Below, one piece after another: positions 4,126 to 19,216 of a stretch of 42,679 nucleotides of DNA. Origin of the DNA: Clostridia bacterium (GTDB taxonomy: Bacteria > Bacillota > Clostridia > Christensenellales > Aristaeellaceae); assembly GCA_017480045.1 (NCBI GenBank), contig JAFVBK010000051.1, positions 1-42,679 on the forward strand, in the 5' to 3' direction. Made by a program: the position numbers and the translations under genes. Every line of letters begins with the position of its first letter. Within the stretch, counting starts at the first letter, position 1. Below the pieces are notes generated by a model. The model was given only the letters and a program-made list of their open reading frames with translations, made no database searches and had not been told where the DNA came from.

Positions 4126-4677
4126 CTACCAGGGCCATTCCAGTTCGGGACTGTAGTCGTCTGGCGCGAGGGTTGAATCGATGTTTTGATCGAAGGCGCG
4201 CAGAATCTCCAGCTCCAGGTCGGAAAGTATCGAGGCGGGAAGCGCCCTCAGAAGCTTGACGAGGGCGCGGTTGCGCTCGGCCTGGGCGGGGTCGCCCTCC
4301 TCCGGCAGGGTCAGGCGGATGCGCAGAGCCTCCAGTGTGGGCCGGGGAGCGTCGGCGGCGTAGATATATTGCGCGTCGCAGATGAGACAACAACGCTCCT
4401 CGCGCTTGCCGGCTCTACGGATGGTGAACTCAACCGAGGAGCGTCCCGGCTGGCCCGCGGCGGCGAGGCTGAGGTCGAAGGGGCGATAGATGAAAAGATC
4501 TCCAGGCGAGATCTTCAGATATTGGCACAGCGTGTTCAGCGTGTCGAACTGAATGCCCTTGGCGCCGCCGCTGGCGAGGGCGGTGAGCGTGGTGCGGGAG
4601 ACGCGGGTGTCCTCGGAGACTTTGGAGATGGTCAGCCGTCGCTCCGCGAGCAGCACGGCCAGATTGGGAATGAGCAT
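4126..4677 (-). CDS. XRE/Cro-CI family HTH regulator (putative repressor of the phage-like cluster) with an unrecognised C-terminal domain
   Basis: N-terminal HTH_26/XRE pattern LAVLLAERRLTISKVSEDTRVSRTTLTALASGGAKGIQFDTLNTLCQYLKISPGDL. Divergent from the structural genes. No S24 peptidase motif seen. Confidence 0.8.
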   Translation of the reverse strand: MLIPNLAVLLAERRLTISKVSEDTRVSRTTLTALASGGAKGIQFDTLNTLCQYLKISPGDLFIYRPFDLSLAAAGQPGRSSVEFTIRRAGKREERCCLICDAQYIYAADAPRPTLEALRIRLTLPEEGDPAQAERNRALVKLLRALPASILSDLELEILRAFDQNIDSTLAPDDYSPELEWPW

Positions 4678-4710
4678 GAAGCGACCTCCTGTATGAGGAT
4701 TTCAGGACAT

Positions 4711-4739
4711 ATTGTACAGCAATCTGAACAAATTGTCAA
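4711..4739 (-). promoter_or_regulatory. Promoter of the XRE repressor gene (TTGACA-17 nt-TACAAT on the minus strand)
   Basis: Plus-strand TGTCAA at 4734-4739 and ATTGTA at 4711-4716, with RBS CAGGAGG downstream. One arm of an 8-bp inverted repeat (TCTGAACA, 4723-4730) lies in the spacer. Confidence 0.6.
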
Positions 4740-4855
4740 GGACAGGCATGAAAAGCGCAAATGACTGACATATACTCATGATGTTCAGACTATTGGACAT
4801 TATGACTACAAATTGAGAATAATGCGCGTCTCCTGCCGCGGGGAACGCGTGAGAA

Positions 4856-5233
4856 GTGGGAAAGGCGGGCGAAGGCATGACGGCGAAGGAGTATTTGAGC
4901 CAGGCCAAGCGACAGGACCGGCGTATCGGCGCGCTGTTGGACCGGCAGCGTCGGTATCATGAGCTGGCGGGCAGCTGCGGCGAGAACGGGCGCGCGCGGA
5001 TGCTTGAATTGGAAAAGGAACTGGATGAGCGAATTGGCGCTTACGCGGCGCTGGTGCGGGAAATCGAGGGCGTGATCGACGCCGTGGGGGACGCGCAGTA
5101 CCGCGATGTGCTGAAATACAGGTATTTGAATGGATGGAGTTGGCAGCGGATCGCGGAGCGCATGTACTTTTCCCAAGACTGGGTGTGGCGGCTGCATGCG
5201 CGAGCGTTGAAAGCGGTGCGCGTACCGGAGTAA
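4856..5233 (+). CDS. Phage sigma-70 region-4-like transcriptional activator (RinA/ArpU/DUF1492-like late regulator)
   Basis: C-terminal YRDVLKYRYLNGWSWQRIAERMYFSQDWVWRLHARALK resembles a sigma region 4 / LuxR-like HTH. It sits just upstream of the terminase genes. The start is ambiguous (GTG 4856 or ATG 4877). Confidence 0.6.
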   Translation: MGKAGEGMTAKEYLSQAKRQDRRIGALLDRQRRYHELAGSCGENGRARMLELEKELDERIGAYAALVREIEGVIDAVGDAQYRDVLKYRYLNGWSWQRIAERMYFSQDWVWRLHARALKAVRVPE

Positions 5234-5378
5234 ACAGGACAGAGAAAGCAGGTTTTGGCGGCGTATAGATCAAGCATGAAGCGGCGAGAGGGGGCGGATT
5301 AGAATAGGCGGAACTGACAAGCGCGTCGGGCTGACGGGGAACGCCCGAATTGCCGCGCGGCTGCGCAAGAAGCTGCTG

Positions 5379-5573
5379 ATGCGGCTGGAGAAGGTGGCGG
5401 ACGCGATTCCGGATGGCGCGGTGACGGAGATGAAGGCGCAGGACGACGGCGCGACGACGCTGTTTAAGCTGCGGGATCTGACGGCGGCCTACCGGGATCT
5501 GGCGGAGGATATGCCGGGAGACGGCGGCGGAGATACGGAGGATTTGACGCCGTTGGAGGAACTGCTGAAATAG
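5379..5573 (+). CDS. Short TerS-like ORF (possible C-terminal remnant or minimal small terminase subunit)
   Basis: Called by its position immediately upstream of TerL and its acidic C-terminal tail. The frame is open from 5280, but no ATG/GTG/TTG occurs before 5379. No HTH region is present. Confidence 0.35.
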   Translation: MRLEKVADAIPDGAVTEMKAQDDGATTLFKLRDLTAAYRDLAEDMPGDGGGDTEDLTPLEELLK

Positions 5574-5653
5574 AGGCGCATTATCCCAATTGGGGAAGGC
5601 TGAAGAGGAATCCGAAGCGGAGGCCGGGCGAAGGGAAAGGAAAGTGAGACTCT

Positions 5654-7060
5654 ATGGGCAAAACGGCGACGATTCCATGGGGCGCGTTTTCCGACAAGCA
5701 CAAGCGCTACATCAAGGAGGCGCTGAAGCACCGAATGTGCGTGGCCGAGGGTGCGATTCGCAGTGGCAAGACCATCGATCATTGCATCATCGCGGCAGCC
5801 TATCTGGAGCGGACGCCGGATCGATTTCATCTGGCGAGCGGCGCGACGATCGCTAACGCCAAGCTGAACATCGGCGTGTGCAACGGCTTTGGATTGGAAA
5901 ACCTGTTCCGGGGCCGCTGCCGATGGGGCAAGTACCGGGACAACGAGGCGCTGTTTATCCGCACGCATACGGGAGAAAAGATCGTGATTTTCGCGGGCGG
6001 CGGACGCGCGGACAGCTATAGGCGCATTCTGGGCAACAGCTATGGGCTGTGGATCGCCACGGAGATCAACGAGCATTACGATTGCGCTGACAGCCGCACG
6101 AGCTTTGTGAAGGTGGCGTCGGGCAGGCAGATTGCCGCGCGGCAGCCGTTGACGCTTTGGGATTTGAATCCTTGCGGGCCGGGAGCGCCCATCTATCGGG
6201 ATTACATCGACAAATATAGGAAGGACAGGCTGGCGGGCGGCTATCTGTACGAGCATTTCACGATCCGGGACAACGCCACGATTACGCCTGAGAGGCTGCG
6301 GGAGATCGAGAGCCGCTACGACGTGAATTCGGTGTGGTACCGGAGGGATATCCTGGGTGAGCGCGCCGCGGCGGAAGGGTTGATCTATAGGCAGTTCGCG
6401 GATAACCCGGAGCGATTCATCGTGGACGGCACGGCGGAGGGGCAGGCGCTGCCCGGAAGGGTTCGCAGCGCGGCGATCGGCGTGGACTTTGGCGGCGGCA
6501 CCAGCGCGCATGCCTTCTGCTGCCTGGGGTTTACCGCGGGCGGCGCCGCGATCAATTCGCCGAGCCGTCCGGCGACGGTGTCCGCATTTGCGGAAAGCCA
6601 CGGGATCGTCGGGAACTCAAGCCGTGGCGCGGTAGTGGTGCTGGACGAATACCGGCAGGGAGAGGCGCTGACGCCAAACGCGCTGGCGGCAGACTTTGTA
6701 GAGTTTGTGCAGCGATGCCAGGCGCGATGGCTGGTGACGGATGTCTGGTGCGACAGCGCCGAACAGACGTTGATAAATGGGCTGCGGGCCGCGGCGGCGG
6801 CCGCGCGCCTGCCGGTGAACATCGGCTCGGCGCTGAAAAAGCCCATCAACGACCGTATTCGGGCGACCTGTCTGTTGATGGGCGAGGGGCGGTTTTTTGT
6901 GCATCGCGACTGTCGAGATACCATCGACGCGCTGCTGAACGCGGTATGGGATCGGGGAAAGCCGACCCAGGACGTGCGACTGGACGACGGCACGACGAAC
7001 ATCGACAGCCTGGACGCGATGGAGTACGCGCTGGAGCGGGAAATCGCGTATCTTCTGTGA
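5654..7060 (+). CDS. Terminase large subunit (PBSX / Terminase_3-like)
   Basis: Walker A AEGAIRSGKT, Walker B-like LWIATEINEH, C-terminal nuclease region IGVDFGG ... DSLDAMEYAL. Size (468 aa) and position fit. Confidence 0.9.
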   Translation: MGKTATIPWGAFSDKHKRYIKEALKHRMCVAEGAIRSGKTIDHCIIAAAYLERTPDRFHLASGATIANAKLNIGVCNGFGLENLFRGRCRWGKYRDNEALFIRTHTGEKIVIFAGGGRADSYRRILGNSYGLWIATEINEHYDCADSRTSFVKVASGRQIAARQPLTLWDLNPCGPGAPIYRDYIDKYRKDRLAGGYLYEHFTIRDNATITPERLREIESRYDVNSVWYRRDILGERAAAEGLIYRQFADNPERFIVDGTAEGQALPGRVRSAAIGVDFGGGTSAHAFCCLGFTAGGAAINSPSRPATVSAFAESHGIVGNSSRGAVVVLDEYRQGEALTPNALAADFVEFVQRCQARWLVTDVWCDSAEQTLINGLRAAAAAARLPVNIGSALKKPINDRIRATCLLMGEGRFFVHRDCRDTIDALLNAVWDRGKPTQDVRLDDGTTNIDSLDAMEYALEREIAYLL

Positions 7061-7072
7061 AAGGATGATCGC

Positions 7073-8626
7073 ATGGGTTTTATGGACATGGTTTTAAAAA
7101 GGGGGAGGAGGCTGATGGCAAAGGCGGGCGCGGATGCGGGCCTGAGCCGCGCGTTCAGGGACATCTTCGAGGTCGGGGGTGTGCCCGCGTACCGGCAGTT
7201 TTACGAGAATGGCATCTTTGTGTGGAAGGCGCTGTACCGGGGCAGCTACGCGCCCTGGCATCTGGTGCCCGCGCCGACCATCGCCAACCCGAAGGCCATG
7301 CGTCAGCTCTACCGGCTGAACGCGGCGAAGGCGGTATCGGCGGAGCTGGCGGGCCTGGTGTGGAGCGAGCAGTGTGACGTTCGCGTGAGCGTGAATGGCG
7401 GCGCGGAGGGCGATCGGGATCCGCTGAACACCTTTGTGCATCACGTGCTGCGGGAAAACGCCTTTAACGAGAAGATGCAGCAGCTGATCGAGCAGGGACT
7501 GGCGCTGGGCGGCGCGGCGATAAAGGTTTGGGCTGAGGACGAAGGTCCGCAAAGCGGAAGGATTCGGCTGGGGTATTGTGCAGCGGATCAGTTTGTGCCC
7601 GTTGCCTGGGACAACGCGCAGGTGAAGGAGGCCGTGTTCATCTCTCGCGAGGCAAAGGATGGGCACTATTATACCCGGCTGGAATGGCACCGGCGAGACG
7701 GCGAGACCTATCGTGTGGACAACGAGGTGTACCGTTCGGAGCCGCGGCACGGCGCGCCGGGACAGGACCAGGATATACTTGGAGTTCGCTATCCGCTGGA
7801 GGCGGTGTATCCGGAGCTTGACGAGCACGCAGAGGCGCGGGTGAAGGACAGCCTGTTCACTTATTGGCATACGCCCATCGCCAACAATTTGGACGACGAT
7901 AGCCCGCTTGGCATCAGTATTTACGGCAACGCGCTGGAAACGCTGCGCGCACTGGACATTTGCTATGACAGCTTTGTGCAGGAATTTGAGCTGGGCAAGA
8001 AGCGCATCATCGTGCCTGCCCGCTGCGTGCGTACGGTGGCAGATCCCTCTACCGGCGAGATGCGGCGCTATTTCGATCCTGGCGACCGGGTATACGAGGC
8101 ACTGGCGACGGACGACGCGGGAGAGCTGCGCATTCAGGACAACAGCGTGGAGCTGCGCGTGGAGGAGCACGTGGCGGCGCTGAACGCCTTTTTGTCGGTA
8201 TTGTGCCTGCAGCTGGGCTTTTCGGCCAATACCTTCAGCTTCGACGGCCACAGCGGGCTCAAGACCGCTACCGAGGTGGTGAGCGAGAACAGCAAGACAT
8301 ACAAGACCATTCATACCATTCAAAACCAGCTGAGGCCCGCTTTGGAGCATTTGACGCGCAACATCATCGATGTGGCGATACTGTATGGTCTGAGCTGGGA
8401 GGGGCGTTCAGTGGAGAGCCTGGCGGCGAACGGCTATCAGGTGAAGGCGGTGTTCGACGACGGCGTGACACAGGACCGGCAGACCAACATCGCCGAGGGA
8501 TTGAAGCTGGTGGAAGCGGGACTCTTGAGCCGGTATCGCTTTTTGACGGACGTGAAGTATGGTCAGGGGCTGACGCCCGGCGAGGCTGAGGAAGAGCTGC
8601 GGCGACTGAAGGCGGAGAGCGTATGA
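7073..8626 (+). CDS. Portal protein (SPP1 gp6-like)
   Basis: 517 aa, directly after TerL. Its composition looks like SPP1-type portals. The exact start is uncertain (7073, 7082 or 7115). Confidence 0.8.
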   Translation: MGFMDMVLKRGRRLMAKAGADAGLSRAFRDIFEVGGVPAYRQFYENGIFVWKALYRGSYAPWHLVPAPTIANPKAMRQLYRLNAAKAVSAELAGLVWSEQCDVRVSVNGGAEGDRDPLNTFVHHVLRENAFNEKMQQLIEQGLALGGAAIKVWAEDEGPQSGRIRLGYCAADQFVPVAWDNAQVKEAVFISREAKDGHYYTRLEWHRRDGETYRVDNEVYRSEPRHGAPGQDQDILGVRYPLEAVYPELDEHAEARVKDSLFTYWHTPIANNLDDDSPLGISIYGNALETLRALDICYDSFVQEFELGKKRIIVPARCVRTVADPSTGEMRRYFDPGDRVYEALATDDAGELRIQDNSVELRVEEHVAALNAFLSVLCLQLGFSANTFSFDGHSGLKTATEVVSENSKTYKTIHTIQNQLRPALEHLTRNIIDVAILYGLSWEGRSVESLAANGYQVKAVFDDGVTQDRQTNIAEGLKLVEAGLLSRYRFLTDVKYGQGLTPGEAEEELRRLKAESV

Positions 8627-8653
8627 GCATCCGCGGCGGAAAAGGAGGAAAAC

Positions 8654-9130
8654 ATGGCGGAGTTTGACAGGGATTTCCTGATCGGATGCGGATTGTCTGA
8701 GGATCAGGCGGAGACCGTGCTGGCGGCGCACGACGCGGCGCTGGCTGGGTTCGTGCCGAGGGAAGAGGTGCAGCGGCAGATTGACGCGGCGCTGGCGGAG
8801 GCAACGAAGGGCGCGGAAGCCGGGGATTACGAGGCGCTGCTGGCGGAGCGCGATATGCTGCGGGCCATCGGCGGCGAGGACTTTGAGGACGTGAAGCCGA
8901 AGTTTCGCGAGCAGGTGTACGCGCTGCTGGATCGCGGAAGCCGGGCGCGACCGGTGGCCGAGCAGCTGTCGGCGATTCGGGAGAGATACGAGGAGTACTT
9001 CATTTCGGAAGCGCGCCCCGCGCGGATGCCGCGATTTGGCGGGCCTACGCATGGCAGCATGCCCAGGGGCGCGCTCGGCGCGGCAGACCAGTTCAGCCAG
9101 GCATGGGGCTTTGCGCCCCGGCAGCGATGA
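8654..9130 (+). CDS. Capsid scaffolding protein
   Basis: 158 aa, helical and acidic, lying between the portal and capsid genes. Strong RBS AAGGAGG. Confidence 0.65.
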   Translation: MAEFDRDFLIGCGLSEDQAETVLAAHDAALAGFVPREEVQRQIDAALAEATKGAEAGDYEALLAERDMLRAIGGEDFEDVKPKFREQVYALLDRGSRARPVAEQLSAIRERYEEYFISEARPARMPRFGGPTHGSMPRGALGAADQFSQAWGFAPRQR

Positions 9131-9182
9131 ATCCATAAGCGGCGCGCGCCGCATGGAAATAGAGTGAAGAGAGGATGATTGT

Positions 9183-10079
9183 ATGGCATTCACCAAGCAG
9201 AACGTGAACTATGCGGCGGACTACAGCCGCGCAATGGCGGACGCCTATCCGTATCTCTCCTACTTCGGGGAGATTTGGGGAGCGAACAGCGCCAACCTGT
9301 ATAAGCCCGGCATGGGAAGCACCATGTACATTCCCAGCCTGACCACCTCCGGCGCGCGGGCGACCAACCGCGATCAGGTGACCGGCACGTTCAACCGCAA
9401 CTGGAACAACAGCGTGCAGGCCGTGAACCTTGAGATGGACCGGGAATGGGATACGCTGGTGGACCCGATGGACATGGACGAGACGGATATGGTGGCGACC
9501 ATCGCGAATGTGACCAAGGCCTTTACCGAGCAGCAGAAGGTGCCGGAGATGGACGCCTACCTGGCGTCGAAGCTGTACAGCTTTGTAGTCCCGGATACCA
9601 CCGCGCTGACCACGGATAACATTCTGACCCGGTGGGACGGCTACCTGGAGGCGCTGGCGAACGCCCGCGCGAATCGCGACCGCGTGTGGGCCTACATGAC
9701 CCCGGCGACCTATCGGCTGCTGAAGGAGGCGGCGGGCATCACCCGCTTTGTGGACGCGGGCAGCGCCGAGCGCAGCGTAGACCGCAATGTGGCGCGTCTG
9801 GACGGCGTGAACATTCGAGAGGTGCCTGAAGATCTGATGAAGTCGGCCTACGATTTTGCCGAGGGCTGGACGCCCGCCGCCGACGCCGCGCAGATCAATA
9901 TGATCCTGGTGGACCCGGAGGCGGTGGCCGCGCCGGTGAAATATGAAGTGGCGATGATGTCTGAGCCAACGGCCCAGAGCAAGGGCAAGTACCTGTACTA
10001 CGAGCGCTACTACTACGGCGCGTTCAAGCTGAACAACCGCGCGGGCGGCATCATCGTGAACGCCGCTACGGTCGACTGA
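9183..10079 (+). CDS. Major capsid protein
   Basis: 298 aa, directly after the scaffold gene. Called by position and size; the family was not identified by eye. Confidence 0.75.
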   Translation: MAFTKQNVNYAADYSRAMADAYPYLSYFGEIWGANSANLYKPGMGSTMYIPSLTTSGARATNRDQVTGTFNRNWNNSVQAVNLEMDREWDTLVDPMDMDETDMVATIANVTKAFTEQQKVPEMDAYLASKLYSFVVPDTTALTTDNILTRWDGYLEALANARANRDRVWAYMTPATYRLLKEAAGITRFVDAGSAERSVDRNVARLDGVNIREVPEDLMKSAYDFAEGWTPAADAAQINMILVDPEAVAAPVKYEVAMMSEPTAQSKGKYLYYERYYYGAFKLNNRAGGIIVNAATVD

Positions 10080-10096
10080 TTCGGAGGGCTTGAAGC

Positions 10097-10486
10097 ATGG
10101 CGCGATATCTGACCTATGAAGAGTACCTCTCTCGTGGCGGCACGTTGGGAGAGACGGATTTCGGCGCCTGCGAGCTGCGGGCGCGCAAACGCATTGACTC
10201 GCTCACCTACTGCCGCGTGCGAGGAATGGCTGAGACGCCTGAGGCGGTGAAGACCGCCATGATGTCCGCCATTGAAGCGGTTTTCGCCTACGGCGTGAAC
10301 GCTTTGGCGGCGGCACCGCCGCTGGCGGCCTTTACCGCGGACGGCTATTCGGAGAGCTATCAGAGCGCGCAAGAGCGCTCGGAGGCAGTGGATAAGGCGC
10401 TGAAGCGCGAAATTGAAGCGCTGCTTGCGGGCGTGACGGACGACGCCGGCGTGCCGCTGACCTACGCGGGGGTGAAATGTCTATGA
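10097..10486 (+). CDS. Head-tail connector / adaptor protein
   Basis: 129 aa directly after the capsid gene, RBS GGAGGG. Called by position. Confidence 0.55.
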   Translation: MARYLTYEEYLSRGGTLGETDFGACELRARKRIDSLTYCRVRGMAETPEAVKTAMMSAIEAVFAYGVNALAAAPPLAAFTADGYSESYQSAQERSEAVDKALKREIEALLAGVTDDAGVPLTYAGVKCL

Positions 10487-10593
10487 ACGGCAGGGAAGAA
10501 CGGACGCCGGCCGAGGCGCTCCTTCGCGACGCGATGTACAAAGGCCGGTATGTCTGCTGCCCGGCGGGGCCGAGGAGGCGGGGCGAGAGATGA
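10483..10593 (+). CDS. 36-aa micro-ORF, apparently translationally coupled to both neighbours
   Basis: ATGA start/stop overlaps at both ends (10483 and 10590). Peptide MNGREERTPAEALLRDAMYKGRYVCCPAGPRRRGER. It fills the only gap in the connector region. Confidence 0.35.
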   Translation: MNGREERTPAEALLRDAMYKGRYVCCPAGPRRRGER

Positions 10594-11003
10594 AGCTGTG
10601 CGGCGAGACCATTACGCTGTTCAATGCGCGTCAGAACGGCGATACGGGCGGACAGATATATATGCCGACGGTTATCGTGGGATGCGCGTGGCGTCGCGGG
10701 CAGCGGGCGGAGCTGGATCCGAAGGGCGGGCTAATGGCGGCGGATGAATACGTCGTGAGAATCCCCGTGGACGCGGATTTCGGCGGCAAACACTACGCCG
10801 ATCCCATCACCTGGCGACAGGGAGGGGCGGAGAACGGCTTTACGTTGCAGCGCGGCGATATTGTGGCGCGCGGCGCGGTCAAGGGTGAAGGCTGGACGCC
10901 CTCCAAGCTGAAGGCGGCCTGCGCGGATTGCTTTACCGTGCTGGGTGTGACCGACAACCGGCGCGCGCCGCACGGCGCGCATTGGCGGCTCGTTGGAACG
11001 TAG
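10590..11003 (+). CDS. Head closure / head-tail joining protein
   Basis: 137 aa, called by position between the adaptor and tail genes. Confidence 0.5.
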   Translation: MKLCGETITLFNARQNGDTGGQIYMPTVIVGCAWRRGQRAELDPKGGLMAADEYVVRIPVDADFGGKHYADPITWRQGGAENGFTLQRGDIVARGAVKGEGWTPSKLKAACADCFTVLGVTDNRRAPHGAHWRLVGT

Positions 11004-11023
11004 GCGAGCAGAGGGAGGAAATT

Positions 11024-11458
11024 ATGCCGCGAAGCAATAATGCCGGAGCGCTGCGAAATTGGCTGCGGGAATGCCCGGAGATCGCCAGGGGAAATGCCTT
11101 CGGCGTGGATTACCTGGGGGATGCGCCAGGAAGCTATGCGCTGAGCAGCGTGCCCTCAGAGCTGAAATACAGGGAGAACATCCTGGGCAGAGCCTTGCTT
11201 CAGACCAGACAGAGGCAGGAATACTGGTTGGATGCTCGCGCTCCCTATGGGGCGGACGCGAATCAGAACCTGGATAACCTGGCGTTTTTCCAAGCGGTGG
11301 CGCGCTGGATGCAGGCGCAAAACGACGCGGGTCGATTTCCGGAATGGGAAGGTGGGCGCGTGGTGGCGATACTGCCTGTGCTGAGCGCCGCGCCGGAGAA
11401 CGCAGGCGGCGACGCCGCGCGGTATCGGATTCGGATTCGCGTGGAATTCGAGATATGA
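11024..11458 (+). CDS. Tail completion / tail terminator-like structural protein
   Basis: ATG at 11024 preceded by GAGGGAGG. The upstream part of the 10928 track ORF overlaps the previous gene. Called by position. Confidence 0.5.
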   Translation: MPRSNNAGALRNWLRECPEIARGNAFGVDYLGDAPGSYALSSVPSELKYRENILGRALLQTRQRQEYWLDARAPYGADANQNLDNLAFFQAVARWMQAQNDAGRFPEWEGGRVVAILPVLSAAPENAGGDAARYRIRIRVEFEI

Positions 11459-12021: not shown

Positions 12022-12078
12022 CGACGCTTTGCGGCGGGGGAGCTTGCTCCCCCGCCATGATGAAGAAGGGAGGCAGCT

Positions 12079-12534
12079 ATGACTGAGAAGATCAAGAAGA
12101 GCGCCGCAATACCGGCGATTACTGTGGACGATGGCAGCCGTCGCGTTCCGATACACAACATTCACGGCGAGGAGATCGGCGTGTTTTATTTCCACCCGAC
12201 GGATATCGGCATCATCGAGCGCTACAACCACATGGTGGATGGTTTTGACGAGATCACAAGGCCCCTTGAACGGTTCAGCGGCGACGCGGACGATGCCGCT
12301 CAGGCAGAGGCGCTGCGCGAGGCTGAGAAGCGACTGCGCGAGGCTGTGAACGGGCTGTTTGGCGGCGATGCCGCGGGCGCTTTTTTCGGCGGTATGCACC
12401 CCTTTAGCCCGGTGGGGGGCGCTTTCTATTGCGAATCGGTGCTGAAGGCCGTGGGGCAGTATATCTCCGAGCAATTTGACGCCGAGACGGCGAAGTTCTC
12501 CAGCCGCGCGGCCAAATATCTGAAGGACGCATAA
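12079..12534 (+). CDS. Tail assembly chaperone
   Basis: 151 aa acidic protein between the tube and tape measure genes, RBS GGGAGG. Confidence 0.6.
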   Translation: MTEKIKKSAAIPAITVDDGSRRVPIHNIHGEEIGVFYFHPTDIGIIERYNHMVDGFDEITRPLERFSGDADDAAQAEALREAEKRLREAVNGLFGGDAAGAFFGGMHPFSPVGGAFYCESVLKAVGQYISEQFDAETAKFSSRAAKYLKDA

Positions 12535-12542
12535 AGCGCCCG

Positions 12543-13130
12543 ATGCTGGAGGCGAGAGCATTGAGCTACGAGCTGCCGCAGGCGCTGGAGGTGAGCGGCC
12601 GCGATTGGGCGATTCGCGCCGACTATCGGGAGATACTGAAGATCCTGGCGGCCTTTGACGACCCGGATTTGACGGACGCGGAGAAGGCGTATGTATGCTT
12701 ACATAACCTTTACGCGAATTTTGAGGACATGCCTGAGGCGGATTATCCGGAAGCTTTTCAAGCCGCGGCGGCCTTTATTGACCACGGCGCGGGCGGATCG
12801 GGCGCGGGCCCGCGCACAGTGGATTGGGAGAGGGACGCGCCGCTGCTGTTTCCGGCGGTGAACCGCGTGGCGGGCTACGAGGTGCGCGGCGCGGCATTTC
12901 TGCACTGGTGGACGTTCCTGGGAATGTTTATGGAGATTCGGGATTCGGTGTATGCTACAGTGCTGGCTCTCCGGCAAAAGAGGGCCAGAGGCGAAAAGCT
13001 GGAGAAGTGGGAAAGGGACTTTTGGCATCGCAATGCCGGAATTTGCCAGCTGAAGCCGCGGTTGACCGAACTGGAACAGGCGGAGAAAGCCCGGCTGACG
13101 GAGCTGTTGGGCGGCGTGCGGTCGCTTTGA
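12543..13130 (+). CDS. Phage Gp15-family protein (second tail-assembly protein)
   Basis: N-terminus resembles the Pfam Phage_Gp15 family as I recall it (ALEVSGRDWAIRADYREILKILAAFDDPDLTDAEK). It is a separate ORF, not a frameshift product. Confidence 0.6.
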   Translation: MLEARALSYELPQALEVSGRDWAIRADYREILKILAAFDDPDLTDAEKAYVCLHNLYANFEDMPEADYPEAFQAAAAFIDHGAGGSGAGPRTVDWERDAPLLFPAVNRVAGYEVRGAAFLHWWTFLGMFMEIRDSVYATVLALRQKRARGEKLEKWERDFWHRNAGICQLKPRLTELEQAEKARLTELLGGVRSL

Positions 13131-13165
13131 GACAGGACGAATGACGGATGAAAGGAGGCGGTTTC

Positions 13166-16100
13166 GTGGCGAGAAATTCGGGCGGCGCGATCGTTATTGA
13201 CGCGCTGTTGGGCGACGGCGATTTTATGGCGGATGCCAAGCGGATGGCCGAGGCGGCGCGTTCGCTGAACGGCGCGACAAAGCGCCTCGGTGGGCAGATG
13301 CGCGCGACCTCGGCCGGGTATATCAGCGCCGTCGGAAAGACTGTGCGCGCGGTTGAGACGCTGCGAGACGAGCAGCTGGCGGCGTTTGGCGATACGGCGA
13401 AGGCCTGGGAGAGCGCACGCACGCGGATGAACGGGTTGAGCGCCTCGCTGGGCGAGCTGAAGCGGAGCGCGAGAGATGCCTTTGTGCCGATTTTGACGGC
13501 GGCGGCGCCGACTTTGACGACGCTGACCAATTTACTGTCGACGGCGGTCAGGGGCGTGGGCGCGTTTATGGCCGCGATGACGGGTCAGAACGCCTTTTTA
13601 CGAGCGACGAGCGCTCAGAAGGCATACGCCGGGAGCCTTCAGGGAACAGCGCGCGCGGCCAGGGCGCTCAGGAGACAGCTGGCGAGCTTTGACGAGCTGG
13701 ACATTTTGCGGGATGCCGGCGGAGACTCTGGGGCAAATGGCGGCGCTGTCGGCTTGGAGGAGCTGGCGGGAAAGCTTACGATGATTCCGGTAGACGCGGG
13801 AATCCTGGATTTTGCGCAGCGGTTGAAGCGGCTGTTTGCGGCGGGTGATTACGACGGCGTTGGGCGCGCGATCGCGGATGGGCTGAACGGCGCCATCGAG
13901 AGGGCGCGGGAGCTGATCCGCTGGGAGAACCTGGGCGAAAGCGTGAAAAAGGCGGTCGACGGCTTCTGCGCGGCGTTCAACGGCCTGCTGGGCGGGGTGC
14001 GCTGGGCGGAGGTCGGCGGCGCGTTGGGCGACGGCATCGACACGCTGATTCGCACGGCGAACCGGCTGCTTTCGGGCATCGACTTCGCGGGCGTGGGCGC
14101 GGCCATCGCCGACGGACTGAGCGGCGCGATCGGGGAGATCGACTTTGACATGCTGGGCGAGACGCTGAGCCGTCTGTTGACCGCAAAGCTGGTAGTAGCG
14201 GCGAACGCCTTGGGCAGCTTCGACTGGCAGCGCTTTGGAGGAAGGCTGGCGGAGGGCCTTGGCGGCTTTTTGCGGACCACTGCGGACGTGCTGGACGATA
14301 TCGACTGGGCGGATTTGGCGTTGACGCTGACGCGGGGACTGAATCGATTTGTCGCGGACGTCGATTGGAGCGGGGTTGGCGCGTTTTTGGGCAAGCGGCT
14401 GAGCGACGCGCTGGGAGCGCTGCGCGTTGCGGTGAGCGCCTTTGAATGGAGCGAAGCCGGCGCGGCACTGTCGAAGGCGGTGAACGGTCTGGTTCACAAG
14501 GTGGACTGGGAGGCGCTGGGGCAATGGCTTGATCGAACGATCAAGGGCGTTTTGGATTTTGGCATTCGCTTTGTGCAGGACTTCGACGCGGACGGCTTCG
14601 GCGCGGGCATCGCCAAAGCGCTGGACGAGGTGGACTGGGACGGCATTGCCGGGCGGCTATGGACGCTGCTTTCGACGGCGATGATGAAGCTGGGCGGCAT
14701 CGGGCAGCTGCTGAACCTTGGCGGCGGATCGCTGGATGGTCTGCGCCTGGGCGGCGGGCAGACGGATCGGACGCAGGCGAATGTGAGCGTGCGGCTGGTA
14801 AAGCGCGGCTGGACGAGCATCGACGCGTTTGTGGGGACGGCGGTGAAGGTATCCACAAGCCTGGGCAAGGCCAATTGGACGACGATTTCAGACTATGTGG
14901 GCACGGTGGTTCGCGTGCTGACCTCGCTGGAGAGGCAGGGCTGGAGCAGTATCGCCGCCTTTGTGGGCGACAGAGTGACGGCGATGGTGGATCTGGCGAA
15001 GAACGGGTGGAGCAGCCTGGCTGGCTTTGTGGGAGACACCGTGTCCGTTAAAACGGGCCTGTTGAAGCAGGGCTGGAGCAGCATCGGCGAGTTTGTGGGC
15101 GATCTCGTCAATGTCAAGACGGGGTTGCAGAAGTACGGCTGGACGACCATCACCGACTTTGTTGGCGAGTTTTCCGAGGTTAAGGCGATATTGCGGCGCT
15201 GGGGCTGGAGCAGCATTTCTGACTTTGTGGGCGACGCTGTGTCCGTCAAGACGGATTTGCAGAAAAATGGCTGGAGCAGCATCGCTGATTTTGTGGGCGA
15301 CGCGGTATCGGTGTGGACGCAGCTGCGGCGCAACGGTTGGGACAGCATCGCCGGTTTTGTGGGCGACGAGGTGTCGGTGTGGACGGAGCTTGTGAAGTGG
15401 GGATGGACAAGCATTTCAGGCTTCGTGGGCGATTCCCTCTCCGTATGGACCTCTCTGAAAAAATCAAACTGGAGTTCTCTGGCTGATTTTGTGGGGACTT
15501 CAATAACGGCGAAGGTTACGTTGGTCGCCGACAAGGTGAACAAGATCTCGGCACAGGTTGCGCAGGTGCTGGGGCTGGCGACCGGCGGCGTCATTACGGC
15601 GGGGGGCGGCGTCAGGCGCTTTGCCTCCGGCGGCACGATTATGAACAGCGGGCGCGCCAGCTGGTGGAGCGGAGTGCAAAAGTACGCAAGCGGCACGGGA
15701 CGGGCGCACGGCACGATGTTCGTGGCGGGCGAAGCCGGACCGGAGATCGTGGGCCATGTGAACGGCAGGACGGAGATTTTGAACAAATCCCAGATAGCCC
15801 AGGCGATTTATGGGGCGGTGGTGGCCGGCATGGCGCAGGCCGTCAACGCGCTGGGCCGGTTTGTGGCCGCGCGTATGGCGACGTATACCAACGCGCTGAT
15901 CGGCGGCATCGCGGCGCTTCATCCGATGGGAACGGACGCGGCGCTGTCAAGGCGGTTGTCCGCGATTGCAAATACGGTGGCCTTTGCGCCGCCGGCGGTG
16001 GCCGCCGGTTCGGTGGTGCCCTATGAGATCGCGCTGCAGCAGTCGCGAATCAGAGATGGGCTGCAGAGCACGCTGGACGCGAACAACGCGGATTTGATAC

Positions 16101-16264
16101 AGACGATCATCAGTGTGATTGGCGCGCAGACGTCGGCCATCGTGGCGGCGGTGAACGGCTTGCAGGGCGATAGGGCCGAGGGCGGTCTCTCCGCGCAGCG
16201 CGTTATAGACGAGATCAACCGACGGACGCAGATGTTTTCCGCGTCGCCGCTGAAGGGGGTATAG
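13166..16264 (+). CDS. Tail tape measure protein
   Basis: About 1030 aa, Ala/Gly-rich and helical, with W/F-containing internal repeats. GTG 13166 follows AGGAGG by 7 nt; the track start ATG 13148 is the alternative. Confidence 0.9.
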   Translation: MARNSGGAIVIDALLGDGDFMADAKRMAEAARSLNGATKRLGGQMRATSAGYISAVGKTVRAVETLRDEQLAAFGDTAKAWESARTRMNGLSASLGELKRSARDAFVPILTAAAPTLTTLTNLLSTAVRGVGAFMAAMTGQNAFLRATSAQKAYAGSLQGTARAARALRRQLASFDELDILRDAGGDSGANGGAVGLEELAGKLTMIPVDAGILDFAQRLKRLFAAGDYDGVGRAIADGLNGAIERARELIRWENLGESVKKAVDGFCAAFNGLLGGVRWAEVGGALGDGIDTLIRTANRLLSGIDFAGVGAAIADGLSGAIGEIDFDMLGETLSRLLTAKLVVAANALGSFDWQRFGGRLAEGLGGFLRTTADVLDDIDWADLALTLTRGLNRFVADVDWSGVGAFLGKRLSDALGALRVAVSAFEWSEAGAALSKAVNGLVHKVDWEALGQWLDRTIKGVLDFGIRFVQDFDADGFGAGIAKALDEVDWDGIAGRLWTLLSTAMMKLGGIGQLLNLGGGSLDGLRLGGGQTDRTQANVSVRLVKRGWTSIDAFVGTAVKVSTSLGKANWTTISDYVGTVVRVLTSLERQGWSSIAAFVGDRVTAMVDLAKNGWSSLAGFVGDTVSVKTGLLKQGWSSIGEFVGDLVNVKTGLQKYGWTTITDFVGEFSEVKAILRRWGWSSISDFVGDAVSVKTDLQKNGWSSIADFVGDAVSVWTQLRRNGWDSIAGFVGDEVSVWTELVKWGWTSISGFVGDSLSVWTSLKKSNWSSLADFVGTSITAKVTLVADKVNKISAQVAQVLGLATGGVITAGGGVRRFASGGTIMNSGRASWWSGVQKYASGTGRAHGTMFVAGEAGPEIVGHVNGRTEILNKSQIAQAIYGAVVAGMAQAVNALGRFVAARMATYTNALIGGIAALHPMGTDAALSRRLSAIANTVAFAPPAVAAGSVVPYEIALQQSRIRDGLQSTLDANNADLIQTIISVIGAQTSAIVAAVNGLQGDRAEGGLSAQRVIDEINRRTQMFSASPLKGV
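14801..15526 (+). repeat. In-frame tandem repeat inside the tape measure gene: 11 x 66 bp (22 aa, consensus K.GWSSI.DFVGD.VSV.T.L.)
   Basis: Counted directly from the translation. Every unit is exactly 22 aa with an invariant W4, F10, V11, G12. Confidence 0.9.
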
Positions 16265-16267
16265 GCA

Positions 16268-16642
16268 ATGGCAAAGCCCGTGTTGATCATCAACGGCCAC
16301 GATTACGCGGCCTATGTGGAGGAACTGAGCCCTTCCAGAAACGACCTGGACGCGGACGGCAGCGGGCGCGACGTGCAGACGGGATTGATGTATCGCACCC
16401 GCATCGCCGTCAAACAAAAGTGGGAGGTGAAGCTGCTGCGCCTGACGGAGGCGGTGCACCGGCAGCTCCTGACCGATATCTCCGGGACCTATTACGACGC
16501 GACAGTGCTGGACCCGACCACGGGACAGCGAAGCAGGCGGACGTTTTACACATCCTCGGTACCCTTCGGCGCGCAGCGCTACGACAGGGAGACCGGCGCG
16601 CCGGTGTACGACGGGATGAGCTTTAGCATGACTGAACGCTGA
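16268..16642 (+). CDS. Distal tail protein (Dit-like, short form)
   Basis: 124 aa immediately after the tape measure gene, RBS AAGGGGG. Called by position. Confidence 0.55.
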   Translation: MAKPVLIINGHDYAAYVEELSPSRNDLDADGSGRDVQTGLMYRTRIAVKQKWEVKLLRLTEAVHRQLLTDISGTYYDATVLDPTTGQRSRRTFYTSSVPFGAQRYDRETGAPVYDGMSFSMTER

Positions 16643-16748
16643 CGCGAAGCGTCAACTGATGGCGCAAGCGCAGGGCAAAGCCCAAGACGCGCCTGAAGCC
16701 CGCGAGCAAGCGAGATCGAGGCGCGGGGCGAAAAGGGGGGGAAGGACG

Positions 16749-19022
16749 ATGCAGGCGACGAGCGCGACCTGGCGCGCGTTGGCGGCGGCCGGGACGGCGC
16801 GACTTGAGACTGTGGCCGTGATTGACGGTACGGAGTACGTCGCGATCTCCGCGCCGGCGATCAACCGCGCGCTGACGCAGGACGGGTTGAGCGTTGGCAA
16901 CGCCGTTTCAGCGAGCTGCCAGTTTTCCGTTCTGACGGACGACAGCATTCCCAGGGCCGCGAAGGTGGTCATCAGGATGCGGCTATCGGATGGCGAAAAG
17001 GTGAGCGAATGGCTGCCGGCGGGGACGTTTTTTGTGAGTCATCGTGAAAAGGACGCGGTGACGGGGCTGACGGCGCTTGAATGCTATGACGCGATGCTGA
17101 AGGCCAACGCTGCTTATTCGAGAGAGGGCGCCTGGCCCCGGTCAATGGCGGAGGTGGCGGCGGAGATCGCGGAGGCGCTGGGCGTTGGGCTTGACCCACG
17201 CACGCGGCTGCAGAAGGGCGACGATTTTATGGTGTCGCTGCCGGAAGCAGGCATGACGATGCGGGAGGTGCTGTGCGGCATTGCCTCCGCGCAAGGCGGC
17301 AATTGGGTGGTGACACAGCAAAACAAGCTGAGATTGCTGACGCTCGGCTCGACAGAGGACGAGGCGGAGGCGTTGGCCGTGCTGGGCGGCGTGTCCGCCG
17401 GAGCGGAGCAGACCATTACCGGTTTGCGCGTCACCGGAATCGGCGAGGAGCGATTGATTGGAACCGACGGGGGACTGGTGCTGGAAATCGCGTCGCCCTA
17501 TGCCACCGACGGAGGGCTTGAGTGGCTGTCGGGCCGGTTGATTGGCTCGACCTATCAGCCCTACGCGCTACGCGCGGCGATCTACGACCCCGCCGTGGAG
17601 CTGGGAGACCGCGTTCGCAGCAAAGACGACGTGATGAGCGCGCTATATTGCGAAAATGCCATGCTGGGGCTGGCGTTTCGCGGGGATATTTCCGCGCCGG
17701 AGCCGGGCGAGCTGGCGGACGAATACCCATACATCGGCGCATCCGACAGGTTGAAGCAGTTGTACGCGCAGGTGCAGACGTTGGAGGCGACGAAAGCGGA
17801 CGAAGCGGACGTAGCCGCCGCGGAGGACCGGGCCAATGCCGCGGCCCAGGCATATGCTGCAGCGGCTGAGGAGAGCGCCAAGACCGCCGCGCAGGCGTAC
17901 GCGGACAACGCCGAGGAGAGCGCCAAGACCGCCGCGCGGAGCTATGCAGATGCCGCGAAGGCGAGCGCGAACGCGGTGACGCGGGCGCTGGACGCCGCTC
18001 TGACGCAGCAGGAGGTGTTCAATCGACTGACCAACGATGGCGAGACGCAGGGCCTTTATTTGAAGGACGGCAAGCTGTATATCAACGGCAGCTATATCGA
18101 CGCGGGCACGCTGGACGCGGACTTGATCAGAGCGGGCACGATTGCCGACGAAAGCGGAGAAAACTATTGGATACTGGATGGCGACAACAGCGAGTTTGTG
18201 ACCAGAAAGGGCGTCATCGGCGATTTTATTCTTGAGGACGGCGCGCTGCAATACGGTTCGCTGGAGGTTGGCGGTCAAGGCTCCTATATTGGCAAGGCCG
18301 GCGTCATCTATAACGTGACGCTGAATACCGGGAGTACCTCCAAGGTGCAGATATTTGCCCAGGGCCTGGATTTCTATTGGAACGGCGCGTTGAAGACGAG
18401 GCTGTTCCAGGGCGCCGGCGGCATCAATTTACGCTGCTATGATGACAGCGGCGCGCAGACGACGCCATTTCAAGCGTATAACGCCGATGGCATCCAGGGC
18501 GTCTATCTGCGCTACGATACGCGGTGCACCGAGCGGCTGTACGTGAGCAAGGCGACGACCATGTATGGCGGTGGCACGGTTATCGGCGATTTCTCCGTCT
18601 CCGGCACGAAGAGCCGCCGGGTGAGCACTTCGCAATACTCCGACCGGCTGCTGTACTGCTATGAGACGCCGAGCCCACTGTTTGGCGATGTGGGCGATGG
18701 CGTGATCGGCGAGGACGGCAAGTGCTATGTGTGGCTGGACGCGGTGTTTGCCGGTACCATCTCGACGAGCCGGTATCAGGTGTTTCTTCAGCGCTATGGG
18801 GCGGGTGAATGCCATATCGCGGAGCGCCGCCCGGCCTGCTTCGTCGTGGCGGGGACGCCGGGTCTGGCCTTTGGCTGGGAATTAAAGGCGAAGCAGCGGG
18901 ACTTCGACCAGCGGCGTTTGGATGGCGCGGAGCCGCCCTATACGCCTACGGGTACCGACTACGGCGCTTTGGCGTCGCAGCATATAACAGATTTGCAGAA
19001 AGGGAGGATTGAGGCGGCATGA
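16749..19022 (+). CDS. Tail-associated protein fused to a fibre / receptor-binding region (Tal-like N-terminus, Ala-rich coiled coil, C-terminal fibre domain)
   Basis: ATG 16749 preceded by GGGGGGGAAGGA. The middle region reads AAAQAYAAAAEESAKTAAQAYADNAEESAKTAARSYADAAKASANA. The motif FNRLTNDGETQGLYLKDGKLYINGSYIDAGTL is typical of phage fibre proteins. Confidence 0.8.
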   Translation: MQATSATWRALAAAGTARLETVAVIDGTEYVAISAPAINRALTQDGLSVGNAVSASCQFSVLTDDSIPRAAKVVIRMRLSDGEKVSEWLPAGTFFVSHREKDAVTGLTALECYDAMLKANAAYSREGAWPRSMAEVAAEIAEALGVGLDPRTRLQKGDDFMVSLPEAGMTMREVLCGIASAQGGNWVVTQQNKLRLLTLGSTEDEAEALAVLGGVSAGAEQTITGLRVTGIGEERLIGTDGGLVLEIASPYATDGGLEWLSGRLIGSTYQPYALRAAIYDPAVELGDRVRSKDDVMSALYCENAMLGLAFRGDISAPEPGELADEYPYIGASDRLKQLYAQVQTLEATKADEADVAAAEDRANAAAQAYAAAAEESAKTAAQAYADNAEESAKTAARSYADAAKASANAVTRALDAALTQQEVFNRLTNDGETQGLYLKDGKLYINGSYIDAGTLDADLIRAGTIADESGENYWILDGDNSEFVTRKGVIGDFILEDGALQYGSLEVGGQGSYIGKAGVIYNVTLNTGSTSKVQIFAQGLDFYWNGALKTRLFQGAGGINLRCYDDSGAQTTPFQAYNADGIQGVYLRYDTRCTERLYVSKATTMYGGGTVIGDFSVSGTKSRRVSTSQYSDRLLYCYETPSPLFGDVGDGVIGEDGKCYVWLDAVFAGTISTSRYQVFLQRYGAGECHIAERRPACFVVAGTPGLAFGWELKAKQRDFDQRRLDGAEPPYTPTGTDYGALASQHITDLQKGRIEAA

Positions 19023-19210
19023 AGATCATCACCAGTGTGACCGTGTTCAACGACGCCGTGGGCATGCGCATGAGCGCGACTTATTCCGAGGTGGACGATG
19101 CTACCGGGCGCATAACGAACGACAACCAGCGATTTGACCGCGTGATTACCGACGAGACCGCGAAGACCGAGGCTCAGGCGATTCTGGCATACGCGGCGGA
19201 GAATCTCTGA
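19019..19210 (+). CDS. 63-aa hypothetical protein; last gene of the phage-like cluster
   Basis: ATGA overlap with the fibre gene stop. No hydrophobic segment is visible, so it is not a holin. Confidence 0.5.
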   Translation: MKIITSVTVFNDAVGMRMSATYSEVDDATGRITNDNQRFDRVITDETAKTEAQAILAYAAENL

Positions 19211-19216
19211 GAAACA

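Follow-up and report, generated by a model that had tools for sequence, protein, structure and literature searches.

A recA-adjacent cluster of siphovirus structural genes in rumen Clostridia as a candidate gene transfer agent or PBSX-like element

The stretch of DNA analysed here (the window, 42,679 nucleotides of contig JAFVBK010000051.1 from the Clostridia bacterium assembly GCA_017480045.1) carries at positions 4126-19210 a cluster of 18 tightly packed genes, all of them intact: a repressor, a sigma-region-4 activator and 16 siphovirus genes for packaging, head, connector and tail. The gene directly 3' of the cluster is recA (19385-20506). The same recA-adjacent cluster is present in at least eight species of rumen Clostridia, in which it has been inherited vertically. 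On balance, and with a confidence somewhat above even, it is read here as a phage-derived particle cluster that has been kept by the host, gene transfer agent (GTA)-like or PBSX-like, with an independent origin in a siphovirus of the A118/SPP1 type. It is described as a candidate GTA, with packaging, release and transfer as predicted functions, and DNA delivery (GTA) and mainly killing (PBSX-type) are not separable from the sequence. Its distinctive feature is the unusually clear evolutionary trail left by the loss of the DNA-binding domain of the small terminase (TerS). A domesticated element of the GTA or PBSX type had been proposed in a first-pass annotation; this proposal is favoured by the genomic tests that ran in full, and the word candidate is retained.

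Structural genes of the cluster

Gene families were assigned from a list of open reading frames (ORFs) and from profile matches in Pfam, PHROG and TIGR, with PDB comparison for some of the proteins. The window has a G+C content of about 62%. The features of the cluster and its borders are the following (lengths in amino acids, aa).

4126-4677, minus strand: repressor, HTH_26 (Pfam HTH_26, E 3.7e-16)
4678-4855, no strand: divergent control region (promoter scan and seven-species alignment)
4856-5233, plus strand: sigma-70 region-4-like late activator (Sigma70_r4, E 1e-6; phrog_36, E 1e-16; sigma70-ECF superfamily below cutoff)
5298-5573, plus strand: TerS; 5379-5573 if taken as the 64-aa ORF from ATG 5379 (alignments, hhalign)
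5654-7060, plus strand: TerL (phrog_2, E 1e-24; TIGR01547, 58.6 bits, partial and below cutoff; PDB 5oe8, E 1e-7)
7073-8626, plus strand: portal protein, SPP1 gp6 type (PF05133, E 4e-24; phrog_533, E 6e-118)
8654-9130, plus strand: scaffolding-like protein (between portal and major head protein; weak Phage_scaffold match; kept in all syntenic loci)
9183-10079, plus strand: major head protein (phrog_422, E 3.6e-81)
10097-10486, plus strand: head-tail adaptor, a connector (phrog_541)
10590-11003, plus strand: DUF6751 protein, a connector (phrog_3366/PF20536)
11024-11458, plus strand: tail completion protein, a connector (phrog_3266)
11509-12021, plus strand: probable major tail (tail tube) protein (phrog_3099, E 4e-40)
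12079-12534, plus strand: first protein at the tail-chaperone position (phrog_11299)
12543-13130, plus strand: second protein at the tail-chaperone position, Phage_Gp15 (PF06854/phrog_706)
13148-16264, plus strand: tape measure protein, 1038 aa (phrog_1535, E 3e-32)
16268-16642, plus strand: conserved tail protein, 124 aa (phrog_1194)
16659-19022, plus strand: tail/host-range protein, 787 aa (phrog_6616, E 8e-60; phrog_9680)
19019-19210, plus strand: 63-aa terminal gene, role not assigned (phrog_18444, E 4e-11)
19211-19384, plus strand: right border, SOS-type recA promoter (Cheo boxes, -10 TATAAT)

The first-pass annotation described this region as made up of structural genes alone, apart from a repressor and a sigma-like activator, and the profile annotation bears this out. 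The siphovirus set had also been called complete, which is not quite so: in comparison with related complete phages, the TerS DNA-binding domain, the minor capsid protein Phage_min_cap2, one connector (Minor_capsid_2) and a tail or endolysin gene are missing. Profile searches found no integrase, replication, holin or endolysin genes in the 42.7-kb window or in the fetched flanks, as had been stated for the window. The sole strongly hydrophobic small ORF (11946-12161, minus strand) was considered as a holin candidate and rejected as an antisense artefact that is not kept in relatives.

TerL has an intact ATPase Walker A motif (GAIRSGKT), aligned with the Walker A of PDB 5oe8, and the major head protein is 33-42% identical to capsids of Bacillus, Clostridioides and Lactobacillus phages. 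The activator start that is kept among relatives reads MTAKEYL, from ATG 4877, which gives a protein of 118 aa. The tail/host-range protein is the most divergent protein of the cluster, with a variable central and C-terminal part and a length of 688-884 aa among species. The 63-aa gene has 62-79% identity among syntenic loci and is the last gene before recA in every one of them; a hydrophobicity scan of its product gives no transmembrane segment.

The ATGA overlaps reported earlier at 10483, 10590 and 19019 were confirmed. A species-specific ORF of 38 aa (10477-10593) is bracketed by the first two of them and fills an insertion of about 100 bp between the adaptor and DUF6751 genes. In L006, L010 and L052 (L-numbers denote related loci, and W the window's own copy in locus comparisons) these two genes meet in an ATGA overlap with zero gap, and in L011 there is a short gap only.

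Conservation of the locus among rumen Clostridia

A scan of one genome per bacterial species led to six other rumen species, all named 'uncultured Clostridiales' (L006-L011). The possibility raised in the first-pass annotation that related genomes carry the cluster at this same recA-adjacent place was confirmed by six other GTDB species representatives and by further assemblies with the same cluster and position (L052/L053 and L017/L021); the cluster is also present in L123. The shared order is LytR, the gene of a 792-aa P-loop protein (p792), repressor, activator, a small ORF (TerS), TerL through the tail protein, the 63-aa gene and recA. It is found in full, with both borders, in L006, L008, L010 and L011, and L007 and L009 agree with it as far as their contigs reach. 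Metagenome-assembled genomes with the cluster include RUG14431, RUG11878, RUG11065, RUG13544, RUG103, RUG311 and GCA_965132465.1, and the RUG311 lineage has a full-length TerS. Moreover, five metagenome contigs encode an identical capsid protein; gene order is the same in the four of sufficient length, and the left flanks are the same in the three that extend past the p792 gene.

The absence of frameshifts and internal stops noticed at first sight holds in the window, where the ORFs are intact, and the cluster ORFs are also open in all the syntenic loci compared. The ratios of non-synonymous to synonymous substitution rates (dN/dS), calculated by the Nei-Gojobori method, range in the cluster genes from 0.17 (TerL, the lowest) to 0.55 (tape measure), well below 1 and comparable to the host flanks LytR (0.32) and p792 (0.42), with recA at 0.06; the absolute values are rough, since dS is compressed by the extreme G+C content at third codon positions (GC3, ~0.9 in most genomes). 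Protein divergence is 13% for TerL, 12% for the tail tube and 18% for capsid and portal, versus 27-31% for the host flanks.

The pairwise distances of p792 and of the cluster proteins are correlated (r 0.47-0.86), and the same subgroups are obtained from both, with L008, L052 and L009 together, L006 with L010, and L011 as an outlier. L007 is nearest to L009 on the cluster proteins and has no p792 sequence for the host-side comparison. The GC-rich composition that the cluster was thought to have in common with its flanks is reflected in GC3, which is 0.79 for cluster and host alike in the window, ~0.90-0.92 in the others, and 0.84 versus 0.81 in L056. Within the window's own species, five assemblies differ by 33 synonymous and 23 non-synonymous cluster variants, with zero indels or stops. 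Furthermore, hairpin repeats that occur host-wide have colonised the cluster in relatives. Synteny, intact ORFs, dN/dS, co-divergence, GC3 and repeats together argue for long vertical inheritance under selection, as opposed to a recent or decaying remnant.

These data bear directly on the explanation that the cluster is an inert cryptic prophage remnant, from which the lysogeny, replication and lysis genes were deleted and whose remainder has so far not decayed. The absence of the selfish modules and of lysis genes, the missing minor capsid and connector genes, and the lack of an ATG start for TerS in the window's species would all agree with it. Against it, at least eight species, with flanking host proteins ~30% different, have the 18 genes intact, dN/dS lies well below 1, the structural proteins are more conserved than the host flanks, and the within-species variants have the same purifying pattern. 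The non-coding operator region is also conserved, and the 25 codons ahead of ATG 5379 in TerS differ only synonymously from those of L010 (both described below). Nor was anything found that the first-pass annotation had named as refuting its proposal: there is no contiguous integrase/att pair, strain-specific recent deletion or hidden frameshift. An inert remnant is thus largely refuted by synteny, dN/dS, divergence and within-species variants, and it is regarded as very improbable.

Capsid identity was also considered as a clock for domestication and was dropped, as phages that differ clearly in GC content and in their tails have capsids 70-82% identical, which indicates that the capsid is slow-evolving and mosaic.

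The hairpin repeat is GC-rich and has the form CCTTCCCC-N4-GGGGAAGG, often after GACCTCTTCCGTCACGGCTGCGCCGCGA. It is scattered in the intergenic gaps of the cluster and in the host flanks of relatives, being seen in L010 (5070-14290), L052, L053, L123, L009, L011, L016 and L017, with none in the window's species. It also occurs in frame within portal genes, where it encodes repeated HLPLKGKAG segments. It looks like an element of the REP (repetitive extragenic palindromic) or MITE (miniature inverted-repeat transposable element) kind that tolerates or exploits coding insertion.

A Halogen_Hydrol gene (PF10112, 285-301 aa) stands beside the repressor in L008 (3197-4054) and L123 (10628-11533). 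In L008 it lies between the p792 gene and the repressor, and in L123 unrelated host genes replace p792 and LytR beyond it. These arrangements indicate that the left flank has been rearranged in some lineages.

A small terminase that has lost its helix-turn-helix

The 64-aa ORF between activator and TerL is, as judged from alignments, a small terminase from which the N-terminal helix-turn-helix (HTH) DNA-binding domain has been deleted. This ORF and its orthologues of 85-105 aa align to the central and C-terminal parts of phage TerS (~150 aa), and the C-terminal motif DVEDLSPLxELL is common to the TerS of the cluster and that of the related phages. The hhalign comparison with phage TerS, whose alignment includes the close L011 orthologue, gave a probability of 99.7% (E 3.7e-27), the aligned part being limited to columns 69-153 of the phage proteins (85 columns). 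Separate tblastn matches to the phage TerS of L023, L025, L038, L040 and L049 have 35-62% identity and point the same way. In an exhaustive search of 1.8 billion representatives, 109 TerS relatives were found, and in 14 of the best 20 the match begins 43-154 residues in.

Of three full-length TerS that were scanned, the two from the phages L023 and L049 have an N-terminal HTH_psq domain, and the L011 copy had no match; a faint one was seen in L124. Full-length TerS is kept in the basal syntenic lineage L011/L021 and in the variant locus L056, and its N-terminus aligns with the HTH region. The C-terminus of the L056 protein differs, in step with its different TerL. In the crown clade ~61 codons have been lost, with a new start in the linker ('GEAN', common to L009 and L011). 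The lack of a DNA-binding domain at the N-terminus has been proposed as the defining trait of GTA-type TerS, explaining random packaging (PMC6854486).

The start of the gene in the window's species is unusual. The two TerS ATG starts of the relatives (MAMGE.. and MGG..) read ATT (5298) and ATA (5304) there, with a strong Shine-Dalgarno GAGAGGGGG ahead of them (region 5286-5381). A start at ATG 5379 would drop the invariant basic stretch GNARIAARLRKKLL. In addition, the 25 codons upstream of ATG 5379 have only synonymous differences versus L010, so that the TerS N-terminus is still under selection. Translation probably begins at a near-cognate codon, ATT 5298 or ATA 5304, and this initiation could possibly result in a low TerS dosage.

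Related phages and mosaic variants

When metagenomes were scanned with the tail-tube alignment, most matches were phages and prophages that have the tail module in common, and the core clade came up only as short fragments; the scan served to define what the phages have beyond the cluster. The closest phage relatives considered here come from rumen metagenomes: L050 and L126 are contigs of 36-39 kb, and L124 lies at the end of a 62-kb scaffold. They are 72-74% identical to the window in TerL, ~61-65% in the portal and 55-73% in the capsid. The phage relatives carry a TerS of 150-200 aa, with an N-terminus that aligns with the HTH region, Phage_min_cap2, which we take to be an SPP1-gp7-like minor capsid protein, and four connector genes including Minor_capsid_2. 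L050, L124 and L126 also carry early genes (ERF, SSB, DnaC-like, methylases), with ERF and SSB in L050, SSB in L126, and an integrase in L050 as well. In L126 and L050 the early genes sit between the lysogeny region and the sigma-like gene, and the sigma-region-4 gene of L126, homologous to the activator, is located immediately upstream of TerS. A lysin (Phage_lysozyme2 + ELLD + PG_binding + SH3) follows the tail protein in the related phage-like loci L060, L072 and L078 and in the rearranged L015. The recA-adjacent clusters have no early genes, integrase, Phage_min_cap2, Minor_capsid_2 or tail lysin.

The clusters of L056, L123 and L015 were compared over the left part, within 10-kb flanks. 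L056 (locus 1-9700) belongs to a more distant species (62% identity in both p792 and LytR) and has its cluster at the same p792-adjacent position, so that the locus appears to predate the crown clade. Orthologues of the window's repressor, activator, TerS core, connectors and tail genes are present in L056 (41-69% identity), and its TerL (Terminase_3), portal and capsid differ from those of the window. It appears that the head and packaging module was swapped by phage recombination in one of the two lineages.

L015 (RUG12259, 1-20864) is a chimera of the repressor, activator and HTH-less TerS of the window's family with phage-like structural genes, since from TerL through the Gp15-like gene it has 88-97% nucleotide identity to the complete 36-kb phage L126. 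It is without exactly Minor_capsid_2 and Phage_min_cap2, and keeps the lysin after the tail protein. L015 could stem from recombination or from a recent domestication of its own, with convergent losses.

In another organism, the L125 locus (7777-21332) encodes a TerL 73% identical to that of the window, and its structural cluster directly abuts host genes, with only a LexA-like repressor (HTH + Peptidase_S24) and three small genes in between. This is possibly another element that was independently reduced to its structural genes, with control of the SOS type.

Control region and repressor

Only 178 bp separate the repressor from the divergent activator. The repressor promoter P_xre is near-consensus (TTGACA-17-TACAAT, 4739->4711), and the activator promoter P_sig is weaker (ATGAAA-17-TATACT, 4748-4776). 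An inverted pair of ~20-bp operator-like sites (4713-4733 and 4780-4799), read from the alignment, brackets these promoters, with the consensus TGT(A/C)CAATAGTCTGAACA(A/T)T. The seven-species alignment of this intergenic region contains the invariant blocks ATTGTACA, TTGTCAAGG and GTTCAGACTATTGGAC. Another conserved non-coding block, GACAGAGAAAGCAGGTTTTGGCGGCGTATAGAT (5238-5270, plus strand), with a -10-like element, is located in the gap between activator and TerS and is kept in W, L052, L009, L008 and L123. In motif form it reads GACAGAGAAA-N-GGTTTTGGCG-N-TATAAT, and it is a candidate for an activator-dependent late promoter. Set against the early genes that the phages have at this point, the 178-bp gap suggests that a late activator of phage origin is now placed directly under a repressor-controlled early promoter.

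The repressor consists of an N-terminal HTH and a C-terminal domain of beta-sheet and helix, in which Pfam detected no S24 peptidase domain. Its AlphaFold2 model (pLDDT 91) has as best PDB matches in Foldseek the SaPI2 Stl structures 8q86, 8rc5 and 8qe9, over the full length (E 1e-10, TM ~0.5); later matches cover the HTH alone, and the sequence identity to Stl2 is 16-22%. Judging from this model, the repressor resembles SaPI2 Stl rather than an autocleaving CI. There are ~87 clusters of sequences (90% identity) at 49% identity or more to the repressor, and the relatives in this range whose neighbourhoods were looked up, those of L123 and L056, both adjoin a phage cluster. A homologue at 39% identity is an ordinary host regulator in a host context. 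Repression by Stl2 is relieved when it binds Sak and Sak4, which are phage recombinases, and Stl2 by itself also confers immunity against viruses (PMC11846896). An Stl-like fold without a peptidase domain suggests that derepression takes place by protein contact.

This likeness is also the basis of another explanation, in which the cluster would be a phage-triggered, satellite-like or defence element. The repressor would sense the recombinase or another protein of an invading phage, the element would build its own particles, a sequence-blind terminase would package phage and host DNA alike, and release would be achieved by the lysis genes of the invader. The full-length similarity of the repressor model to SaPI2 Stl, whose relief by Sak and Sak4 is documented (PMC11846896), agrees with it. 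So do the lack of lysis genes in the cluster, the recombinases and SSB proteins carried by phages of these hosts (L050 and L126), and the evident recombination with co-circulating phages. Nevertheless, the cluster has no integrase, replication origin or primase and occupies a fixed chromosomal place, which argues against a mobile satellite, and it encodes all its structural parts, whereas satellites borrow them. In addition, no PADLOC defence model was matched (zero matches), the fold match is moderate and the 39%-identical homologue stands in an ordinary host context. This explanation is considered unlikely.

Borders, recA and neighbouring genes

The cluster runs straight into the SOS-controlled recA promoter, as had been noticed at first. 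This promoter has a perfect Cheo box GAACGTTCGTTC (19218-19229), a second box with one mismatch (19241-19252) and a conserved TATAAT. Cheo boxes were found at recA only, and no SOS box was present in the repressor/activator region. No terminator was predicted between the end of the cluster and recA (19211-19384), where the spacing is conserved across species, and late-operon transcription could therefore continue into recA.

In L001, a metagenome assembly of the same species, recA has a nonsense change, Q51* (window 19535, L001 20353), together with five nearby synonymous differences (19852, 19870, 19888, 19903 and 19984). A chimera of strains formed during assembly could explain this, and so could a genuine recA-defective variant.

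The rest of the window contains housekeeping genes: those of the LytR-family protein, p792, a sugar transferase and a sugar ABC transporter, argG, argH, a deaminase gene, a MATE pump gene, ispE and tRNA-Leu, the latter being the only match of an Rfam scan of the window. No att-like repeat was found between the two borders, as the longest common word, of 7 nt, is at chance level.

p792 (1544-3922, minus strand) is a 792-aa AAA-motif protein with an N-terminal domain, a low-complexity linker, a coiled coil and a P-loop (GPVGSGKT), and gave no match of note in Pfam, PHROG, PADLOC or the PDB. The possibility that it forms part of the element was ruled out, since the gene has its own near-consensus promoter (4084->4055) and homologues at 70%, 59% and 48% identity (L054, L055 and L057) are surrounded by host genes without a phage cluster nearby; a LytR-family gene adjoins the first two. 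p792 is thus a host gene, and the element begins at the repressor. The protein is also lineage-restricted, with 364 homologues (E up to 1e-5), and those whose source was seen are all from gut, rumen or unnamed metagenomes.

The borders bear on the explanation that this is a temperate prophage, still functional, with its genes for integrase, replication and lysis beyond the window or split off by assembly. The window extends over only 42.7 kb, which would leave room for such genes. However, housekeeping genes abut both ends, the same borders are found in independent assemblies and species, and the left-flank genes are present without the cluster in related genomes. Moreover, the phages L126 and L050 keep their early genes before the sigma-like gene, where the cluster has just the 178 bp between repressor and activator. 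This explanation is regarded as highly improbable, the least probable of those considered.

Predicted function and alternatives

The host-kept particle cluster favoured here could work as follows. The repressor would bind the two inverted operators, which overlap its own promoter and that of the activator, and would hold the activator promoter shut. Repression would be lifted by a protein-protein signal and not by autocleavage, and the sigma-region-4 protein would then turn on one late operon of ~14 kb, from TerS to the 63-aa gene. Proheads would form, and TerL with the HTH-less TerS would start packaging on any DNA; in this proposal TerS no longer recognises a pac site, and any cellular (host) DNA would be packaged. 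Long non-contractile tails of ~150 nm, a length estimated from the 1038-aa tape measure, would attach to related cells through the fast-evolving receptor-binding protein. The particles would leave the cell by way of lysis genes located elsewhere, an infecting phage or other cell lysis.

Several observations weigh against this reading. No lysis genes were found within the window, and no holin or endolysin gene adjoins the cluster. Without Minor_capsid_2 and the SPP1-gp7-like protein, the particles could be incomplete or poorly infectious. Capsids 53-73% identical are encoded on phage contigs of ~35-38 kb, plausibly complete genomes; if these contigs are complete, the head may hold the whole 15-kb cluster, unlike the classical GTAs. 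The module exchange with phages in L056 and L015 implies that not every member has been anciently fixed. Finally, the TerS gene of the window's species has no canonical start codon (ATT/ATA), and the compression of dS mentioned above makes the selection estimates coarse.

Part of this evidence could also be explained by a PBSX-type killer particle, in which adsorption of the tail kills competing strains and the packaged DNA is incidental and undelivered. An Xre-type repressor and a sigma-like positive factor ahead of one late operon are the layout of PBSX, and TerL has a partial match to the terminase model of the PBSX family. The fastest evolution is seen in the receptor-binding tail protein, which would be expected if particular strains are targeted, and the missing Phage_min_cap2 and tail lysin would both be linked by us to productive DNA entry. 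On the other hand, TerL is the most constrained protein and the HTH-less TerS is conserved, in agreement with the packaged DNA having a role. The tail is of the non-contractile type, with a tape measure and no sheath, unlike PBSX and the known headed phage-tail-like bacteriocins, and the cluster is without the lysis cassette that PBSX has. A killer particle of this type is possible, although rather unlikely.

A more specific version of the favoured host-kept cluster joins several of its parts. It would be a siphovirus-type GTA beside recA, with an Stl2-like repressor that is freed by a recombinase filament, either of a phage single-strand-annealing protein or of RecA. It would have no lysis genes of its own, exit through the lysis of the invader or another lysis route of the host, and a late operon that reads into recA. 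As a joint claim this is doubtful. If it were true, DNA donation would be coupled both to recombination and to attack by phages or damage to DNA. It would also describe a stepwise path in living lineages, in which the selfish modules were lost first, then the minor capsid and connector genes, and then the TerS DNA-binding domain, and it would offer a gene cluster for the so far unassigned GTA-like packaging of gut Oscillospiraceae and Christensenellaceae.

Regarding the more general reading, the cluster is a concrete candidate in abundant uncultured rumen Clostridia. It provides a natural series of domestication, from complete phages through a basal domesticated form with full-length TerS to crown forms without the DNA-binding domain, and it supports the proposal that the loss of this domain can serve as a genomic GTA marker. 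Furthermore, it suggests the Stl2-like type of repressor and the activator as handles for switching on particle production.

Comparison with known systems

Few GTA-like systems have been tied to identified genes, and outside the Alphaproteobacteria these are PBSX, VSH-1 and, since 2026, FpGTA. No published account of the recA-adjacent cluster was found in a literature search. The cluster resembles the RcGTA-type GTAs of Rhodobacter capsulatus and Caulobacter (CcGTA) in being a chromosomal head-tail cluster of ~15 kb without integrase or replication genes, in its vertical inheritance with the host under purifying selection, and in the absence of lysis genes from the main cluster. The small terminase of those GTAs is also without a DNA-binding domain at the N-terminus (PMC6854486). 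In contrast to RcGTA, with which there is no sequence relationship, the cluster has an SPP1-type portal with a scaffold and no protease. Its control would depend on an Xre/Stl2-like repressor and a sigma-region-4 protein in place of GafA/CtrA. It has a long tail, with a 1038-aa tape measure, and its capsid may be full-size. The Pfam families that we take to be associated with RcGTA (GTA_TIM, Phage-tail_3, DUF2460 and DUF2163) did not appear in the Pfam results for any cluster protein.

In PBSX of Bacillus subtilis, an Xre repressor is accompanied by the sigma-like positive factor Xpf, which drives one late operon. The cluster is similar to it in its Gram-positive host, in having an Xre-family repressor by a sigma-like factor and in the absence of integrase and replication genes. 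The match in control is a likeness of layout, with HTH_26 and Sigma70_r4 genes placed divergently 178 bp apart. TerL is distantly related to the PBSX terminase family but falls outside TIGR01547 (58.6 versus a cutoff of 105 bits, partial). The tail of PBSX is contractile, and PBSX carries a holin/endolysin cassette of its own. In the cluster, lysis genes are absent and the tail is of the siphovirus kind: sheath and lysis families had no matches among the cluster proteins, and a siphovirus tail is what the tape measure and the Gp15-type gene products point to. The repressor of the cluster also has the additional Stl2-like C-terminal domain.

As regards satellites of the SaPI2 or phage-inducible chromosomal island (PICI) type, the likeness is in the repressor, with an HTH and a C-terminal domain of antiparallel beta-sheet, divergent from the genes that it controls. 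The cluster differs from them in having no integrase, primase-replicase or att site, in its fixed position and in encoding a full virion, which satellites borrow. It also differs from an intact temperate siphovirus prophage, since it has no contiguous integrase/att, early/replication or lysis module and is flanked by host genes at both ends.

A further system from a Clostridia host is FpGTA of Faecalibacterium prausnitzii, described in 2026, which makes the first-pass statement that no GTA was known in such Clostridia outdated. FpGTA consists of a podovirus-like operon of 10.5 kb with ten ORFs and a second operon of 5.5 kb, and packages ~8.5 kb (PMC12946183). Like the cluster, it belongs to a gut Clostridia host and has a structural operon with TerL, portal, scaffold and capsid and a putative TerS with no obvious DNA-binding domain, and its own lysis genes are in the separate operon (PMC12946183). 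The cluster is set apart from this description by its size of 15 kb and its siphovirus-like character, with tape measure and chaperone genes. Capsid-DNA sequencing has revealed GTA-like packaging in Oscillospiraceae, Ruminococcaceae and Christensenellaceae, and of four such metagenome-assembled genomes searched, a candidate gene cluster was found in Faecalibacterium only (PMC12946183). A GTA-like element of Clostridia was thus already known in FpGTA, and the recA-adjacent cluster would stand beside it as an independently derived domesticated phage-particle element and candidate GTA.

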